Assembly: GCA_035581425.1 (NCBI GenBank)
Contig: DATJVP010000081.1
Location: 6-64,005, forward strand
Length of the DNA: 64,000 nt
From: Stellaceae bacterium
Lineage (GTDB): Bacteria > Pseudomonadota > Alphaproteobacteria > ATCC43930 > CGMCC-115725
Direction: 5' to 3'
A program made the position numbers and the translations under genes. This document shows, one piece after another, positions 36,675-48,568 of this stretch (position 1 is the first letter of the stretch; each line of letters starts with the position of its first letter). Below the pieces are notes generated by a model. The model made no database searches and was not told where the DNA came from. It worked only from the letters and a program-made list of their open reading frames with translations.

Positions 36675-36743
36675 GGCGTTCCCCAATTCGTCGGAGCCGC
36701 CGGCTCTAGCATATCTCCGGCGGCCTCGCAAAGCGGGGAAGGC

Positions 36744-37256
36744 TCAGGCGCCTTGCTCGGGAGCGCGGTAGATCTGGGGCGGCGGCTCGCCGTGCTTTTC
36801 CGGGAGCTTCGGCTGCGGCGCCGGATGGAAGACCGGGTCGCGCCAATCCCAGGAACGCTCGTAGGGGAGATGCATCACCACGCCGCCGCCGTGGTTGCGC
36901 GAGTTCTCCTCGACCGCCTTCTGGAGGTCGCTCGCGAGCTTCTCGTCCCAGGGCAGCACGTAGTACCGCGGCTCGCGCACCCCGGGGATCTTGAGCCAGA
37001 GATAGATCCCCGAGCCCTCGACGATGTAGGAGCCAAGCACCGGCAATTCGCCATCGGGATGGCGCAGCACCTCGAGCCGGCTCGATTTCGGGCGGCCCAG
37101 CATATCGGAATAACCGAAGAAAAGACCCGCAAGCAGCAGCGCGAAGAATCCGCTCACGATCGCGCGGCGGGTGCGGGTTCCCATGGGGAGGCCCACGAAG
37201 GCGAAAATTCCGAGCGCCAGCGCCAACGTGAGGAAAGCGATGAGGAAGGTCGTCAT
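36744..37256 (-). CDS. hypothetical 2-TM membrane protein with soluble domain and Pro-rich C-terminal tail (third gene of the MotA/ExbB-like operon)
   Basis: 170 aa. Two N-terminal hydrophobic helices, a tail ending PAPQPKLPEKHGEPPPQIYRAPEQGA, and an ATGA overlap with the upstream gene. No family recognised. Confidence 0.6.
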   Translation of the reverse strand: MTTFLIAFLTLALALGIFAFVGLPMGTRTRRAIVSGFFALLLAGLFFGYSDMLGRPKSSRLEVLRHPDGELPVLGSYIVEGSGIYLWLKIPGVREPRYYVLPWDEKLASDLQKAVEENSRNHGGGVVMHLPYERSWDWRDPVFHPAPQPKLPEKHGEPPPQIYRAPEQGA

Positions 37257-37858
37257 TTCTTCTTCGTCTCCTCCTCGCCCATGAAGGCGGCGCGGAGCGG
37301 TTTGTGGATGCGATTGAGGCTGCCCTCGACCATCGCGCCCTTCTTGTCGAGCTTGAAGCGGAAGATCGTGCTCTCCTGCCCGACGTAGCTCAGCTCCATC
37401 TTCGATTGCAGCAGCCGACGGCTCATGCCGTCGGCGCCGGTCACTGTCACCGTCGCCGTCACCTCGATCGGAAAGCGATTGTCCATGGAGCGATAGAGAT
37501 GCGCATTGACGACGTACTCGCCCTGCCAGAAGCCGCGGGCGTAGGCGACCTCATAGTTCATGGGGATGGGCTCGGCGGAATGGCCGAGATCGTCGCGCAC
37601 GAGGTTGAAGATGACGCCGCTCTTGTTGGAATAGCCCACGGGCACGTCGCCCGGGGCCTGCACCCAGAGATCGACGTCGGCGTCGATCTTGTCGTCCCAG
37701 TGGATCTCGACGGTGATGTTGCCGGGCGGCTGCTTACCGGCGGTATCCTCCTGCGCCTCCTTCCGGACATGTGCGAGCGCCACCGCGCCGATCACGAGAT
37801 AGGCGAAGACCAGCAGGAAGAGCATGTCCCGGAAGGAGACATTCATCCCCCGCCACAT
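37253..37858 (-). CDS. hypothetical single-pass protein with an ExbD/TolR-like Asp-containing TM anchor and a non-canonical periplasmic domain
   Basis: 201 aa. N-terminus MWRGMNVSFRDMLFLLVFAYLVIGAV resembles the ExbD/TolR N(I/V)xPxxDV(M/L)LVLLxIF segment. GGAGG lies 9 nt upstream of the ATG. The rest resembles no ExbD, TolR or MotB periplasmic domain that I know. Confidence 0.55.
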   Translation of the reverse strand: MWRGMNVSFRDMLFLLVFAYLVIGAVALAHVRKEAQEDTAGKQPPGNITVEIHWDDKIDADVDLWVQAPGDVPVGYSNKSGVIFNLVRDDLGHSAEPIPMNYEVAYARGFWQGEYVVNAHLYRSMDNRFPIEVTATVTVTGADGMSRRLLQSKMELSYVGQESTIFRFKLDKKGAMVEGSLNRIHKPLRAAFMGEEETKKK

Positions 37859-37861
37859 GGC

Positions 37862-38413
37862 CTAGACCTCCTGGCGCGCGAGGAGATGGGCGTTGGTGCC
37901 GAGCCAGAGATATCCGACGCAGGCCAGCAGGTTCGTGTAGAGCGCCGTGCCCGAGCCGACATAGATCGCGGTCACGACCGTCTTGAAACTCTCGAAGCTC
38001 TGCGCCTTGTCGGCGGAGAGATCGCTCACGGTCATGATGAGGCCGAGCACGGTGCCGACCATGCCGAGATAGACGAGCGCATTGCCGGCCCAGCGCACGC
38101 TTTGCCAATCGCCGCGGAGGCAGCAGACGAGGCCCCAGCCGAAGAGCGCGGTGATGAGGTAGCACATGCCGGTGCTGTCGGCCTCGTAGGGCTTGAGGAG
38201 TACGCCCTCGGCCCAGGCGGCGGCCAGAAGGGCGACACCCACGAGGTTCAGCACCGCGAAGCGCGCGAAGAAGGCCCTTTCCCCCGCGGGAGCGAACGCC
38301 GCGCTGAGGCGCTCCTGCTGCTGGCGGGCGTCGAAGGGGCTCGCAACGGGTGTCGGCTCCACCTCGGCTTGGGGAGTCCGCGACCACGGAAGTCTCGCGA
38401 GGGTGGCACGCAT
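37862..38413 (-). CDS. short MotA/TolQ/ExbB-like proton-channel family protein (putative)
   Basis: 183 aa, 4 predicted TM helices. The last two carry YLGMVGTVLGLI and GTALYTNLLACVGYL about 30 aa apart, resembling the GLLGTVxGM ... ALxxTAxGL signature. AGGAGG lies 7 nt upstream of the ATG. Confidence 0.5.
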   Translation of the reverse strand: MRATLARLPWSRTPQAEVEPTPVASPFDARQQQERLSAAFAPAGERAFFARFAVLNLVGVALLAAAWAEGVLLKPYEADSTGMCYLITALFGWGLVCCLRGDWQSVRWAGNALVYLGMVGTVLGLIMTVSDLSADKAQSFESFKTVVTAIYVGSGTALYTNLLACVGYLWLGTNAHLLARQEV

Positions 38414-38537
38414 CGGTGCCTCCTATGAGATTTTCACGGCCTACCAGCCTGCGGCCGATTTGGTTAATTGAGCCCTAATGTCCCCGGGTATTTTGCACAA
38501 ACACCTGCATTTCCGCGGGACATCGGTGCCTAGACGC

Positions 38538-38987
38538 CTATTTGGCCGCGTCCTCGCAATGACCGAAGTAGGAAGCGACCTCCGTGGGCGCCGGAAGGGT
38601 CACGCTGACGCGCCGCGAGGGCAGGCCCAGGCTCACCACAAACTCGAGCGACCCCACGCGCTGGTCGTGCGGCGGCTCTCCGCGCACCAAGGCGTGGAGC
38701 CGCCGCTCGTCGAGGTCGCCGATCGGGGCGGATCGCGCGCTAATCGTCGTGAAGCGCTCGGTGCCGCGGTAGCAGGTCTCGCCGAGGCAGAACTCCGCGA
38801 TGCCGCGGGCAAAGTCGAGATCGAACTCCTGGAAATGATCCTGGGTATCTCGCTCGCAGCTCGTATCCGTGCACCGCACGGTGTTCTCAAAGGTGCAGCG
38901 GAGCGGGGGCGGGGTGGCCGCAGCGCAGAGCTGCGCTGCGGCGATACTCAGAAACAGGGAGATGATAATGCAAAGGTGCGTGCGCAT
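38538..38987 (-). CDS. secreted Cys-rich hypothetical protein
   Basis: Internal ATG 38987: MRTHLCIIISLFLSIAAAQLCAAATPPP signal peptide. The mature part has 6 Cys (RCTFENTVRCTDTSCERD ... FCLGETCY ... HCED). No family recognised. Confidence 0.5.
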   Translation of the reverse strand: MRTHLCIIISLFLSIAAAQLCAAATPPPLRCTFENTVRCTDTSCERDTQDHFQEFDLDFARGIAEFCLGETCYRGTERFTTISARSAPIGDLDERRLHALVRGEPPHDQRVGSLEFVVSLGLPSRRVSVTLPAPTEVASYFGHCEDAAK

Positions 38988-39120
38988 CGAAATTCTCCGG
39001 CTCGACTCTGAACGACCCTGGGTTGAAGCACCAAAGCCCACCAAGGCCAAGCCCAAAAGACCTTGCCGCCCTGACGCCCCCACGGTTCATAATCGAGCCC
39101 CGGAAGCATCGGAGGACCCC

Positions 39121-39519
39121 ATGACGACCGAAGCCGAATGGCGGGCGAAGCTGACGCCGGAGCAGTTCCAGGTGCTGCGCAAGCACGGAACCGAGCGTGC
39201 GGGGTCGAGCCCGCTCAACGAGGAGCACCGCGCGGGCGTCTTCAAGTGCGCGGGCTGCGGCACGCCCGTCTATCGCTCGGAGGCGAAGTTCGACAGCGGC
39301 ACGGGCTGGCCGAGCTTCTTCGCTCCCATCGAGGGCGCGATCGAGACCTCTACCGACTTCAAGCTGATCTATCCGCGCACCGAGGTGCATTGCCACGTCT
39401 GCGGCGGGCATCTGGGCCACGTCTTCAAGGACGGCCCGAAGCCCACGGGGCTCCGCTACTGCATGAACGGCGTCGCCATGAAATTCGAGCCCGATCCCCC
39501 GAAAAAGGATGGAACCTGA
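39121..39519 (+). CDS. msrB: peptide-methionine (R)-S-oxide reductase MsrB
   Basis: 132 aa. Two CxxC pairs (CAGCGTP, CHVCGGHLGHVF) and the catalytic RYCMNG. GGAGGA RBS. Confidence 0.95.
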   Translation: MTTEAEWRAKLTPEQFQVLRKHGTERAGSSPLNEEHRAGVFKCAGCGTPVYRSEAKFDSGTGWPSFFAPIEGAIETSTDFKLIYPRTEVHCHVCGGHLGHVFKDGPKPTGLRYCMNGVAMKFEPDPPKKDGT

Positions 39520-40664
39520 TGCGCCCCTTCGAGGGCATAAGGGTGCTCGACGCAACGCACGTGCTCGCGGGCCCTTTCGCGACGTATCAGCTCGCCGTTC
39601 TCGGCGCCGACGTGATCAAGATCGAGCATCCCGAGGAGCCCGACCAGAGCCGAAGCAATGGGACCGATCCCGCGCTCAACGACGCGGGCATGGGGACGGG
39701 CTTCCTGACGCAGGCCTCGAACAAGCGCTCGATCGTGCTCGACCTCAAGACGAAGGCGGGGCAAGAGGCGCTCAAATCCCTCGCGAAGACCGCCGACATC
39801 CTCGTTGAGAATTACCGTCCCGGCGCCTTCGAGGCGCTGGGTCTCGGCTACGAGGCGCTCGCGGCGCTCAACCCGCGTCTGATCTACGCCTCCTTCTCGG
39901 CCTTCGGCCAGAAAGGGCCGCGAGGGACGCAGACCGCCTACGATCACGTGATCCAGGCGACGTCGGGGATCATGGCGATGACGGGGACAGAGGAGGTGCA
40001 TCCCGTCAAGTTCGGCTCGCCCGCGGTCGACTACGCGACCGGCATGTCCGGTGCCTTTGCGCTCGCCTCGGCGCTCTTCCAGCGCGAGCGCACGGGCAAG
40101 GGCCAGCGCATCGACATGGCGATGCTCGACGTCGCGATGATCCTCATGAGTTCGCATCTGACGGGCTATCTCCGGAATGGCGTCCATCCGGCGCCCGTCG
40201 GGAACAAGCACTCGCACGCCACCAACAGCGCCTATCCGACCAAGAGCGGGCTCCTGATGCTGGGTGCGAGCAACCTCCGCCAGCAACGGCGTCTCTGGCA
40301 GGCGCTCGAGCTTCCGGAGATGGCGAAGCGCACGAACCGCGAGCGCGACGCCGACCGCGCGCGAGAGGCTGCCGTCCTCTCGGAGATCCTGGCGCGGCGG
40401 ACCGCCGACGAATGGGAGGTGTTCTTCCAGTCGCGCCACGTCCCCGCCGCGCGCGTGCGCAGCATGGGCGAGGCCCTCGCCGATCCTCAGCTCGCGACCC
40501 GCGGCGTCCTCCACCGCTTCGCGAGCGCACCGGGAGTCCCCGGCGCGTTCAGCGTGCCGATCTCGCCCTTCCTCTTCGCCCACGGCGGCCCTCGCGTGGA
40601 CTCACCCCCGCCGCGGCTCGGCGAGCACACGGAGGCGGTGCTGGAGGAGGCGAAGGGAAAGTGA
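39519..40664 (+). CDS. CaiB/BaiF family III CoA-transferase
   Basis: MRPFEGIRVLDATHVLAGPFATYQLAVLGADVIKIE... is the typical family III N-terminus. The start overlaps the msrB stop by 1 nt (TGATG). Confidence 0.9.
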   Translation: MRPFEGIRVLDATHVLAGPFATYQLAVLGADVIKIEHPEEPDQSRSNGTDPALNDAGMGTGFLTQASNKRSIVLDLKTKAGQEALKSLAKTADILVENYRPGAFEALGLGYEALAALNPRLIYASFSAFGQKGPRGTQTAYDHVIQATSGIMAMTGTEEVHPVKFGSPAVDYATGMSGAFALASALFQRERTGKGQRIDMAMLDVAMILMSSHLTGYLRNGVHPAPVGNKHSHATNSAYPTKSGLLMLGASNLRQQRRLWQALELPEMAKRTNRERDADRAREAAVLSEILARRTADEWEVFFQSRHVPAARVRSMGEALADPQLATRGVLHRFASAPGVPGAFSVPISPFLFAHGGPRVDSPPPRLGEHTEAVLEEAKGK

Positions 40665-43590: not shown

Positions 43591-46056
<2,466 letters not shown>

Positions 46057-46079
46057 TCAGCAATCCCTTTAAAAGCTGT

Positions 46080-47285
46080 TCAAGCCGCCGCCAGCATTGC
46101 CTCGGCGACGGCGAAAAATTGCGCGCGCCCGCGCAGCCCCTCGAAAAGCTCGGCATCGGTGCCGGTGAGCCAAGCCTGCGCGCCGAGTGCCGCGAGCTCC
46201 GCAAAGAGCGCCGCCCGCCGCGCGGGGTCGAGATGCGCCGCGACTTCGTCGAGGAGCAGGAGCGGCGCACGTCCGCGGAGCGTCGCCTGCAGCCGCGCAT
46301 GCGCGAGGACGATCGCGATCAGCAGCGCCTTCTGCTCGCCGGTCGAGCCTTCGGCGGCCGGCATGCCCGTCCCCGCATGCCGCACGCGAAGGTCGCTCCG
46401 ATGCGGGCCGAGCGCCGTGGTGCCGCTTTCGGCGTCCTGGCGGCGCAGTGCCTCGAGCCGCGCGCGCAGCCGATCCTCGACCGCGAGCGCGGGGTCGCTT
46501 TCGAGCATCTGATCGACCTCACCGACGAGCGCGAGCCGCGCCGCCGGAAAGGGGCCCACGGCCTCGGCGCAAGCGCGATCGAGCCGCAGCACCGCCTCGC
46601 GCCGCGCCGCCGCGACAGCGACGCCCGTCGCCGCCATAGTCTCCTCGAGCGCCGCAAGCCAGCTCCGGTCGATCGGCCCGTCGCGCAGGAGCCGCGCCCG
46701 CTCGCGCATTGCCTGCTCGTAGGCACCGAGGCGCTGGGCGTGCTCGGCGTCGAAGCCGTAGACGAGCCGGTCGAGGAAGCGTCGCCGTGGCGAGCCGCCC
46801 TCGACGAAGAGCCGGTCCATCGCCGGCACCAGCCAGACGAGACCCAGGTGGAGCGCGAGCGCCGCTTGGCTCCGCTGCGCCTCGCCGTCGAGGGTGAGGA
46901 GGCGTCGCTCGCTGCCCTCGGCGGAATCGCGGCCGGTGCCGATCTCGAGGGTCCCCTCCGGCGTCTCGAGGCTCGCATGCACCGCCCAGGCGCCGCCGAG
47001 GGGGCCTTCGAGCGCTCCATCAGGGCCCCGCCGCCGACGGTCGATCTCCCCAAGCCGCGCCCGCCGCAAGCCGCGCCCGGGCGCCAGGAACGAGAGCGCC
47101 TCCAGCAGGTTCGTCTTGCCCGCGCCATTCGGTCCGTGCAGCACCACCGGCGCCGCCGCAAGCGCCAGCCGCGCCGCGCCATAGCCGCGGAAATCCGTCA
47201 GCATCAGCCGCCGAACGGCCACCGTGCGCGCGGGCGCGGCGCACACCCCTCGGTCCTCGGCAAGGGCAGTGAGATTGGCGGTCAT
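46080..47285 (-). CDS. recF: DNA replication and repair protein RecF
   Basis: LTDFRGY, Walker A GPNGAGKTNLLEA, LLLLDEVAAHLD. The true start may be an internal GTG near 47216. Confidence 0.93.
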   Translation of the reverse strand: MTANLTALAEDRGVCAAPARTVAVRRLMLTDFRGYGAARLALAAAPVVLHGPNGAGKTNLLEALSFLAPGRGLRRARLGEIDRRRRGPDGALEGPLGGAWAVHASLETPEGTLEIGTGRDSAEGSERRLLTLDGEAQRSQAALALHLGLVWLVPAMDRLFVEGGSPRRRFLDRLVYGFDAEHAQRLGAYEQAMRERARLLRDGPIDRSWLAALEETMAATGVAVAAARREAVLRLDRACAEAVGPFPAARLALVGEVDQMLESDPALAVEDRLRARLEALRRQDAESGTTALGPHRSDLRVRHAGTGMPAAEGSTGEQKALLIAIVLAHARLQATLRGRAPLLLLDEVAAHLDPARRAALFAELAALGAQAWLTGTDAELFEGLRGRAQFFAVAEAMLAAA

Positions 47286-47449
47286 GCCGACACGGTCGCA
47301 GTGATTCGGTTAGCCGCTGCGCGAGCAGCCCGCGTCCTTCGAGACGCGCGCTCCCGCGCGCTCCTCAAGATGAGGAATACTGAGGATGGCATTATGAAAA
47401 GTCCGGCCCCCCAGCCAATGTCGACACCGCGGGATGCTCTCATCGCTGC

Positions 47450-48568
47450 TCAGACCCGCATCGGCATCAGCACGTAGAGGGCGCTGCCGTCGGCGCTGTC
47501 GCGCACGAGGGTCGGCGAGGCCGCATCCGCGATCGCAAAGCGCGCGCCCTCGCCTTCGATCTGCTCGGCGATGTCGAGGAGATAGCGCGCGTTGAATCCG
47601 ATCTCGATGGGCGAGGCGCCATAGCGCACCTCGAGCTCCTCGCTGGCGGTCCCGTTCTCCGGGCTCGTCGCCGAAAGCGTGAGATTGCCGCGCTCGACCG
47701 AGAGCTTCACCGCGCGGCTCTTCTCGGTGGAGATCGTGGAGACGCGGTCGACCGCCTCCGCGAACTCCTTGCGGTTCACCTCCAGCACCTTGTCGTTCCC
47801 CGTGGGGATCACGCGGTCGTAGTCCGGGAAAGTGCCGTCGATGAGCTTCGAGGTGAGCAGGGTCTCTCCCAGCACGAAGCGGATTTTGGTGTCCGAGAGA
47901 GAGAGCGTCGCGTCCTCCGCGGTCTCGTCGAGGAGCTTGCGCAGCTCCGTCACGGTCTTGCGCGGGACGATGACGCCGGGCATGCCGGAGGCGCCTTCGG
48001 GAAGCGGAATTTCCATCCGCGCGAGACGGTGCCCGTCCGTCGCAACCGCCCGCAGCATTGCGACCCCATCGCTCTTCGCCGCGTGCAGGTAGATGCCGTT
48101 CAGGTAGTAGCGGGTCTCCTCGGTCGAGATCGCAAAGCGCGTGCGGTCGATGAGGCGCTTCAGGTCGCCCGCTCCGAGCGTGAAGGCGTAGGGGAGATCG
48201 CCGCTCGCCATCAGCGGATAATCCTCGGGGGGGAGGCAGGCGAGCGAGAAGACCGAGCGCCCCGCGCGCACGCTCATCTGTCCCTTGTCTCCGGTCGCCG
48301 CAAGCTCGACCTGCGCGCCTTCCGGAAGCTTGCGCACGATGTCGTAGAGCGTATGTGCGGGCGCCGTGGTGGTGCCGCCCGCCGCCACCTGCGCCGGCAC
48401 CGACTCCACGATCTCGAGGTCCATGTCCGTGGCGCTAAGGGCGAGCTTGCCGTCGCCCGCGCGCAGCAGGACGTTGGAGAGGATCGCGATGGTGTTGCGC
48501 CGCTCGACCACGCTCTGCACGTGGCCCAAGGCGCGAAGCAGCTGGGCGCGCTCTATGGTCAGTTTCAT
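47450..48568 (-). CDS. dnaN: DNA polymerase III beta sliding clamp
   Basis: 372 aa from ATG 48568. MKLTIERAQLLRALGHVQSVVERRNTIAILSNVLL and the C-terminal YVLMPMRV. Confidence 0.97.
   Translation of the reverse strand: MKLTIERAQLLRALGHVQSVVERRNTIAILSNVLLRAGDGKLALSATDMDLEIVESVPAQVAAGGTTTAPAHTLYDIVRKLPEGAQVELAATGDKGQMSVRAGRSVFSLACLPPEDYPLMASGDLPYAFTLGAGDLKRLIDRTRFAISTEETRYYLNGIYLHAAKSDGVAMLRAVATDGHRLARMEIPLPEGASGMPGVIVPRKTVTELRKLLDETAEDATLSLSDTKIRFVLGETLLTSKLIDGTFPDYDRVIPTGNDKVLEVNRKEFAEAVDRVSTISTEKSRAVKLSVERGNLTLSATSPENGTASEELEVRYGASPIEIGFNARYLLDIAEQIEGEGARFAIADAASPTLVRDSADGSALYVLMPMRV

Follow-up and report, generated by a model that had tools for sequence, protein, structure and literature searches.

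Motors of the MotA/ExbB type are, to our knowledge, the sole route by which Gram-negative bacteria carry inner-membrane energy to the periplasm and the outer membrane. Each new output module found on such a motor has revealed new biology, as in flagella, the Ton and Tol systems, gliding and the type IX secretion system (T9SS), and Zorya. In the 5:2 motor GldL-GldM/PorL-PorM, the axle has beta-rich domains in the periplasm, and all of its work is done on that side of the membrane. For TolQ-like rings that have no adjacent ExbD/TolR gene, section 8 of Williams-Jones et al. (2025; PMC12204202) proposes vWA proteins with an Asp-bearing 'trans-pore helix' (TPH) as partners. We analysed three adjacent genes (genes 1, 2 and 3, together called the triad) on a 64,000-nucleotide stretch of a Stellaceae bacterium genome (contig DATJVP010000081.1); this whole stretch is called the window. 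The triad probably encodes a small envelope machine of a new kind, and we put at roughly 60% the probability that its proteins form a self-contained complex in the membrane, a pared-down version of the MotA/ExbB 5:2 motors whose output on the periplasmic side is new. The triad was neither named nor described in Pfam, NCBIfam, PADLOC, PHROGs or the literature searched, and no phage-encoded MotA-family motor was described in the papers searched. An initial annotation of this DNA had suggested an undescribed ion-driven machine; no named system was found in these libraries and papers, in agreement with the first part of that claim, whereas ion-driven rotation is retained below as a conditional part of the model.

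The window proteins were taken from minus-strand open reading frames (ORFs) and scanned against the four libraries. Window gene 1 matched the Pfam family PF01618 with an E value of 0.0012 (19.1 bits), residues 111-138 alone being matched, and its sole matches in NCBIfam and PADLOC were to ZorA, weak and partial (E 0.016-0.06) and far under the cut-offs. PHROGs returned no family for any of the three window proteins. When a profile of close homologues (alignment A1) was searched against 1.84 billion cluster representatives, 579 gene 1 relatives were recovered. PF01618 was matched by 57 of the 60 relatives sampled, with a best E value of 2.6e-11. Five checked relatives scored above the family cut-off: P0308, P0272, P0282 and P0261 (34.1, 35.9, 39.7 and 31.2 bits, respectively) and gp122 of phage RHph_I1_18 (26.8 bits). 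Because these profile-linked homologues belong to the PF01618 superfamily, window gene 1 belongs to it by transitive homology. Profile matches to the PDB needed a wider alignment (A3); its family profile matched ZorA (8vvn) at 8.8e-7, MotA at 4e-5, PomA at 5.8e-4 and TolQ weakly. The AlphaFold2 model of gene 1 (predicted local distance difference test score, pLDDT, 74) contained four long helices (44-68, 83-100, 103-133 and 140-182), the number expected in the initial annotation. The top 50 Foldseek matches of this model were mostly TolQ, ExbB, MotA, PomA and ZorA chains, and the transmembrane (TM) hairpin of ZorA was matched over 72 columns with a root-mean-square deviation of 2.2 and a probability of 0.99.

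Two pore motifs were recognised in gene 1. The TM3 segment YLGMVGTVLGLI is a GxxGT(V/I)xG motif in which G120 was invariant and T121 nearly invariant (alignments A1 and A3), and hhalign placed T121 on TolQ T145. The TM4 segment GTALYTNLLACVGYL corresponds to the family consensus ALYTTLVG with T160 and T(N)161 conserved; T160/N161 aligned with TolQ A177/T178 in hhalign. The topology of gene 1 is MotA-like, with the N-terminus inside and four TM helices. Between TM2 and TM3 the window protein has a cytoplasmic loop shortened to about 8 residues, and its C-terminus lies 11 residues past TM4. Distant orthologues such as that of Azospirillum (247 amino acids), which RefSeq names 'MotA/TolQ/ExbB proton channel family protein', kept an insert of about 70 residues at the same loop. 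Judged by these profiles and alignments, gene 1 is a divergent, minimal four-TM member of the MotA/ExbB/TolQ/ZorA superfamily, and the family-level link is solid. Its earlier placement in the MotA/ExbB/TolQ family was thus supported through the profile-linked relatives, although the protein's own PF01618 score lay under the cut-off.

Gene 2 had 2268 homologues. Its AlphaFold2 model consisted of an N-terminal helix (residues 9-39), a stretch of about 15 residues and a seven-stranded beta-sandwich. Arg10 and Asp11 were invariant in the bacterial homologues examined (alignments A2, of close homologues, and A4), and at least 95% of a set of 115 distinct sequences from bacteria and phages retained the Asp. 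Asp11 fell on TolR D23 and ExbD D25 in the best local profile alignments, which are not significant by themselves. No Pfam, NCBIfam, PADLOC or PHROGs family was found for gene 2. Neither the window protein nor 31 diverse homologues matched PF02472 (ExbD/TolR), an OmpA family or VWA in Pfam, and ExbD/TolR was absent from the Foldseek results for the gene 2 model. When the A2 profile was searched against PDB sequences, chance matches alone were returned; Foldseek searches with the model against the PDB and viral predicted structures gave generic beta-sandwich, adhesin and Ig-like folds with weak scores, from which no function was drawn. Gene 2 is therefore outside the ExbD/TolR family and every known B-subunit family. 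By its single N-terminal TM helix, the conserved Asp near the cytoplasmic end of that helix and its adjacency to an A-type gene, gene 2 nevertheless resembles a stator B-subunit and is a candidate 'axle'. The ExbD/TolR-like anchor seen by the initial annotation was upheld as a conserved Asp in the TolR D23/ExbD D25 register but not as family membership, since the alignments were insignificant and PF02472 did not match; the foreign periplasmic domain it had noted proved to be a beta-sandwich that is not ExbD-, OmpA- or vWA-like.

The most conserved part of the whole system was an extremely conserved acidic loop block in the periplasmic domain of gene 2 (DADVDLWVxxPGDVPVGYSNK...FNLxRDDLG). Between Stellaceae and Azospirillum, identity was 45-53% for gene 2 and 22-39% for gene 1. 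Weak matches to DUF2135 (PF09906) were obtained in 7 of the 31 gene 2 homologues at E values up to 1 (best 0.014), none of them near the cut-off. When gene 2 was aligned with E. coli YfaP by hhalign, the E value was weak (0.18), and the motifs D-x-D-L-(W/H)-V...P...Y-x-N and G-x-Y were aligned. The domain may have a remote likeness to DUF2135/YfaP, which the tools echoed weakly and which is unproven.

Gene 3 comprised a TM hairpin (residues about 3-50), a domain of about 90 amino acids and a Pro-rich tail. The motifs RPK, GIYLWL and EPRxYxLPW were found in the domain and PQPxLPxK... was conserved in the tail (alignment A5); the Pro-rich part was about 30 residues long, C-terminal and with a conserved end. 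There were two TM helices, TM1 contained no His, and the Ser-His-Leu-Ser motif was absent. No match to TonB_C, TolA_C or TolA was found in Pfam, no similarity was detected to ExbD, TolR or TolA (hhalign for TolA), and searches of the PDB and PHROGs gave no match. Weak matches to DUF4131 spanned the TM hairpin alone and were set aside. The hairpin and the Pro-rich C-terminal tail described earlier were thus present, but the loose resemblance to TonB/TolA was not borne out.

The scan for gene 2 relatives was pattern-limited and covered one genome per species. At least 525 species genomes contained a relative; they came from Stellaceae, Xanthobacteraceae and other Hyphomicrobiales, Azospirillum, Skermanella, Roseomonas, Geminicoccaceae and Kiloniellaceae. 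The order of genes 1, 2 and 3 was kept in essentially all of 87 bacterial loci where the flanks allowed it to be read. The three triad genes alone were common to at least 80 of these loci, and the next-best neighbour occurred in at most 19. The spacing between genes 1 and 2 was -17 to +30 nt in all 74 distinct loci, and a 4-nt overlap of genes 2 and 3 was kept in 54 of 78. The triad is a unit of inheritance and conservation, and the operon, with many homologues, kept order and kept spacing, goes far beyond chance. The conservation in synteny that the initial annotation had proposed to check was found across bacterial loci and phages alike. Conserved neighbours gave no functional hints in the loci compared.

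Two triad copies per genome were observed in Azospirillum (chromids H1-H7; A. oleiclasticum loci L064 and L065), and this duplication is old because the copies sit in different clades of the gene 2 tree. Gene 2 relatives also occurred in metagenome-assembled genomes (MAGs) labelled Candidatus Saccharibacteria and Gemmatimonadaceae (loci L056 and L060); these sequences clustered with Geminicoccaceae and other alphaproteobacterial versions, and mis-binning is therefore likely. In one sub-clade of Stellaceae, a conserved ORF of 60 amino acids (MYVRNSEPSVEELLSDDITRMVMARDGLSDQVVRALVRDVQRRL...) preceded gene 1 at a distance of about 90 nt (locus L004, 7183-7365; also loci L001, L002, L005, L006, L008-L014, L018 and L021); it was absent from the window. 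A conserved fourth gene was rejected: this 60-amino-acid ORF of sister Stellaceae and a secreted 149-amino-acid ORF of the window were lineage-specific.

The phage link emerged from a distant relative of gene 1, which pointed to a phage-like contig from a metagenome; there the triad lay between RecA-like and SbcCD-like genes. Using tblastn, relatives were found in 12 cultured phage records with window gene 2 as the query and in 23 with a low-GC viral gene 2 homologue (GC, guanine plus cytosine fraction); the hosts were all Rhizobium or Sinorhizobium. Hidden Markov models built from the triad alignments detected all three genes in phage 16-3, phage NV1.1.1 and the 171-kb phage RHph_I1_18. In the temperate Rhizobium phage 16-3 the genes were p038 (gene 1, 1.7e-19), p040 (gene 2, 9.5e-44) and p042 (gene 3, 3.4e-12); the homology to p040 explains why an Azospirillum record names its gene 2 protein 'P040'. 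The triads of these phages were among early and replication genes, including gyrase, a late sigma factor, an SbcCD-like nuclease, DNA polymerase I and ThyX. A first scan of IMG/VR returned 29 viral contigs, and a second, partly overlapping scan at least 106 matching contigs; all three genes were present in 73 of 79 newly fetched viral loci, with GC from 0.30 to 0.72. In a gene 2 tree the viral sequences formed deep, diverse branches around two bacterial clades; this tree was a rough neighbour-joining tree with a midpoint root, not robust, and its bacterial sampling was biased toward the query. The same triad is a phage gene set, beyond what the initial annotation had seen.

Extra genes were observed in and near several phage triads. 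A gene for a trypsin-like, probably periplasmic serine peptidase occurred 0.3-2 kb from the triad in three rhizobiophage lineages (phage 16-3 p036, L097 3229-4128; L134 7528-8220; L135 3628-4275). An HNH endonuclease gene lay between genes 2 and 3 in phage RHph_X2_25 (L135 5586-6128), an ORF of 245 amino acids between genes 1 and 2 in phage NV1.1.1 (L098 4270-5007), and the small ORFs p039 and p041 within the triad of phage 16-3 (L097 4690-4980 and 5510-5695). The last two were rejected as conserved extra genes, as they were not conserved elsewhere. Since such genes interrupt phage triads, tight coupling is not obligatory. The metagenomic phage contig L095 was considered as T4-like and this was rejected; its RecA-like protein matched Vibrio and Edwardsiella phages of 71-79 kb.

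In the motor-type complex that we favour, gene 1 would form the outer ring, a pentamer by analogy, from subunits with four TM helices and no cytoplasmic domain, and the N-terminal helix of gene 2, a dimer by analogy, would insert into this ring. Asp11 of gene 2 would be protonated and deprotonated in turn as it faces the conserved Thr/Asn positions in TM3 and TM4 of gene 1, and the flow of protons would make gene 2 rotate or shift with respect to gene 1. The beta-sandwich of gene 2, about 15 residues above the membrane, would be the output, and this output would be solely periplasmic because gene 1 has no cytoplasmic face to push against. Gene 3, with its putative arrangement of TM hairpin, small domain and Pro-rich tail, may be an accessory or the load. 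Several results weigh against this model. Window gene 1 was below the PF01618 gathering cut-off (19.1 vs 22.9 bits), the A1 profile of its close relatives gave chance matches alone against PDB sequences, and its Foldseek matches had weak E values (0.03-1) and low global TM-scores (template modelling scores). The gene 2 anchor aligned with TolR/ExbD at a probability of 3-4%, weak statistics that follow from a helix of about 20 residues, and a short hydrophobic helix with one Asp is easily matched. Moreover, the gene 2 linker is too short for peptidoglycan or the outer membrane, which is unlike known force transducers, and the topology of gene 3 is ambiguous, with positive charges flanking TM2 on both sides.

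The cassette is found on alphaproteobacterial chromosomes and in their phages, indicating that its role is most likely at the level of the envelope, both during infection and in uninfected cells, and possibly at the phage-envelope interface. A physiological function in the envelope is favoured by the stable inheritance on the chromosome throughout whole families. A role in phage-host conflict, which may be superinfection exclusion, counter-defence or envelope maintenance during infection, stays in view because temperate as well as virulent phages have the triad in their early regions and because gene 1 is close to ZorA. A more far-reaching proposal, which we offer tentatively and think rather improbable, is that the triad represents a hitherto unrecognised class of minimal 5:2 rotary motor that is primarily a phage tool and was domesticated by whole alphaproteobacterial families as a core envelope function. 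Such a tool would combine a ring without a cytoplasmic face and an axle whose conserved beta-sandwich possibly binds calcium or glycan; expressed early, it would work at the periplasmic face of the inner membrane, for example to exclude other phages, to counter envelope-sensing defences such as Zorya or to keep the envelope together during replication. It is unlikely that the triad is instead a phage-derived superinfection-exclusion or defence device, whose early expression would alter the envelope against further injection and whose chromosomal copies would be domesticated and protective. Such a device might still work as a motor, or else as a gated leak for protons through which the local proton-motive force would collapse once the periplasmic domains detect an arriving tail. 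The position of the triad in early and replication regions of temperate and virulent rhizobiophages is consistent with it, as are the wide occurrence in viral contigs across GC 0.30-0.72, the position of ZorA from the Zorya defence system as the closest solved structure to the gene 1 family and the slightly lower GC of the triad than of its flanks (0.63-0.66 vs 0.68-0.71). In the gene 2 tree, too, the viral branches were the deepest and the most varied, but this tree was neighbour-joining and midpoint-rooted with query-biased bacterial sampling. By contrast, the bacterial loci were outside prophages and recognisable defence islands and had housekeeping neighbours, the window locus lying between MsrB/CoA-transferase and DinB/PBP1A and the Azospirillum locus by an amidase, BON, PurU and PhyR. 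Almost all Azospirillum species sampled had the triad, two old paralogues were present and identity followed taxonomy, which looks like vertical inheritance and not like defence-system turnover. Further, PADLOC called no system, and no effector gene was found with the triad.

A divergent energiser of the Ton/Tol type, in which genes 1 and 2 would be ExbB/ExbD and gene 3 a TonB/TolA that transmits force through its Pro-rich tail to an outer-membrane or peptidoglycan partner encoded elsewhere, appears quite improbable. The three-gene layout is like exbB-exbD-tonB and tolQ-tolR-tolA, gene 1 aligned with the pore helices of TolQ, and gene 3 has a membrane anchor, a conserved Pro-rich PQPxLPxK segment and a conserved C-terminal end. 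However, this segment is only about 30 residues long and lies at the C-terminus, the anchor is a hairpin without Ser-His-Leu-Ser and without His in TM1, and gene 3 lacks a TonB_C or TolA_C domain and is not similar to TolA, ExbD or TolR. A TonB-dependent receptor, Pal or TolB was linked in none of the 87 loci, and the topology of gene 1 is of the four-TM MotA/ZorA type and not of the three-TM ExbB/TolQ type. We give very little weight to a static membrane complex or plain channel without energy transduction, in which the Asp and Thr would be needed for assembly or ion selectivity only, and ligand binding by the gene 2 beta-sandwich would be the actual function. Such a complex would fit a gene 1 without a cytoplasmic domain, a gene 2 in which the periplasmic acidic block and not the membrane part is most conserved and whose identity (45-53%) exceeds that of gene 1 (22-39%), and the weak resemblance of the gene 2 domain to DUF2135. 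Against this, the Asp and the pore-lining polar positions were kept across very divergent bacterial and phage versions, and every characterised MotA/ExbB member with an Asp-bearing single-TM partner that we know of is an ion-driven transducer.

The positions of the triad and its features in the window are given in the table. The dense packing of the three minus-strand genes was found exactly as the initial annotation had described it: the TAG stop of gene 1 is followed by 'gcc' and the ATG of gene 2 (a 3-nt gap), and genes 2 and 3 overlap as ATGA. The AGGAGG site of gene 1 was present, and the quoted peptides YLGMVGTVLGLI, GTALYTNLLACVGYL and MWRGMNVSFRDMLFLLVFAYLVIGAV were all found in the proteins. 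The GC-rich hairpin directly 3' of gene 3 had a folding energy of -35.4 kcal/mol (z = -4.0), and none of 200 shuffles was equally stable. It has no U-tract, occupies most of the 69-nt gap to the DinB_2 gene (start 36674) and is probably the end of the operon. Rfam and promoter scans around the operon gave nothing meaningful.

Table. Features of the three-gene operon in the window.
Feature	Position	Strand	Basis and remarks
AGGAGG ribosome-binding site	38419..38424	(-)	5 nt 5' of gene 1 ATG; read from sequence
Gene 1, 183 aa	37862..38413	(-)	ORF; identical to HTS92478.1 (Stellaceae MAG)
Gene 2, 201 aa	37253..37858	(-)	ORF; identical to HTS92477.1
Gene 3, 170 aa	36744..37256	(-)	ORF; identical to HTS92476.1
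Gene 1 residues 115-126, YLGMVGTVLGLI, TM3 putative pore motif	38036..38071	(-)	Alignments, hhalign
Gene 1 residues 155-169, GTALYTNLLACVGYL, TM4 putative second pore motif	37907..37951	(-)	Alignments, hhalign
Gene 2 Asp11 codon, Arg10 before it	37826..37828	(-)	Alignments
Gene 2 residues ~46-185, predicted periplasmic beta-sandwich	37304..37723	(-)	AlphaFold2 model, alignments
GC-rich hairpin 3' of gene 3 stop	36679..36740	(-)	RNA fold

The triad is flanked in the window by dnaN-recF-gyrB, a LuxR regulator, a CoA-transferase and MsrB on one side and by DinB_2, an ArsB/CitMHS permease, PBP1A and the Pho regulon on the other. A prophage origin of the window locus was rejected on the basis of its neighbours dnaN, recF, gyrB, MsrB, DinB_2, PBP1A and the Pho regulon. 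The window flanks contained no TonB, TolA, Pal, flagellar or TonB-dependent receptor genes, as had been remarked before. The genes dnaN, recF and gyrB lay 6-10 kb from the triad (about 43591-47450, minus strand), and the window is therefore probably close to the chromosomal replication origin. The secreted ORF of 149 amino acids mentioned above (38538-38987, minus strand) shares the strand of gene 1 and is separated from it by about 125 nt on the upstream side; a signal peptide (MRTHLCIIISLFLSIAAAQLCAAA) is clearly recognisable, several cysteines are present, and Pfam gave no family for it. GC fell to 0.63-0.66 over the triad, this ORF and msrB (36800-39800) and was 0.68-0.71 in the flanks, a mild anomaly. 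In Azospirillum the flanks were Amidase_3 and a BON protein, then PurU and PhyR. At the A. brasilense locus (L136, 6835-8382) the triad was divergently flanked by the genes for Amidase_3 (a cell-wall amidase) and the BON protein, an envelope/stress context that was not conserved elsewhere.

All three proteins are currently annotated as 'hypothetical', except for longer gene 1 orthologues, which carry the RefSeq MotA/TolQ/ExbB name; some gene 2 relatives have the ad hoc names P040 and 'Phage protein'. In the Stellaceae MAG, HTS92478.1, HTS92477.1 and HTS92476.1 match the window proteins at 100% and each is annotated as 'hypothetical protein'. The cassette is unusually small, with about 550 residues in total, and both the domain on the candidate B-subunit and the third partner are new. 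Hundreds of species have kept it, among them members of Azospirillum, which can be cultured and are amenable to genetics, and classic, tractable phages such as Sinorhizobium phage 16-3 carry it as well. The triad is thus minimal, widespread, phage-borne and experimentally tractable, which makes it possible to ask in experiments how small a functional 5:2 motor can be and why a phage brings its own.

Compared with the known systems, the triad is most readily set beside ZorA-ZorB of Zorya. Both have a four-TM A-subunit of the same MotA-type superfamily, ZorA (8vvn) was the best solved-structure match of the gene 1 profile at 8.8e-7, and both have an N-terminal Asp-bearing helix on the B-type protein and a link to phage biology. 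However, gene 1 has 183 amino acids and no long cytoplasmic tail, whereas ZorA has about 700, and gene 2 has no peptidoglycan-binding domain. None of the effector genes ZorC, ZorD and ZorE was found in any triad locus compared, and, unlike Zorya, the triad is encoded by phages themselves. The flagellar stators MotA-MotB and PomA-PomB are similar in their four-TM A-subunit, to which the PDB profile matches (MotA 4e-5, PomA 5.8e-4) point, and in the Asp-bearing B helix. They differ in that the torque-generating loop of gene 1 is cut to about 8 residues, gene 2 has no OmpA-like domain and no plug/linker, and no flagellar genes are nearby.

The Ton and Tol systems are also made of three small inner-membrane proteins from one tightly coupled operon with a periplasmic output, which for the triad is predicted; the GxxGTVxG and ALxxT pore motifs recur in gene 1 and the Asp of gene 2 is in the TolR D23/ExbD D25 register. 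In contrast to Ton and Tol, gene 1 spans the membrane with four helices and lacks a large cytoplasmic domain, a beta-sandwich replaces the alpha/beta domain of ExbD/TolR (no PF02472 match), gene 3 is unrelated to TonB/TolA, and outer-membrane partners are not linked. With GldL-GldM/PorL-PorM the triad would share a beta-rich axle domain and a periplasmic working side. However, GldL has two TM helices, the key pair is an Arg on GldM and a Glu on GldL, and GldM spans the whole periplasm; no GldL/GldM (PorL/PorM) Pfam profile matched among the triad proteins and homologues scanned. The mechanism suggested here follows the logic of the TolQ-like ring with a trans-pore helix set out in section 8 of PMC12204202. 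As in the TPH-vWA systems of that section, a MotA/ExbB-family ring would be combined with a partner that carries an Asp helix and a foreign periplasmic domain. Unlike the systems described there, gene 2 is a beta-sandwich without a VWA match, a single B-type gene takes the place of heterologous pairs, a third gene is present, and phages carry the set. For each of Ton, Tol, Mot, Zorya, Gld and TPH-vWA a defining feature was looked for and was absent, so that the triad is none of these, and it shares with these motors the superfamily, through gene 1, and the logic of the B-subunit.

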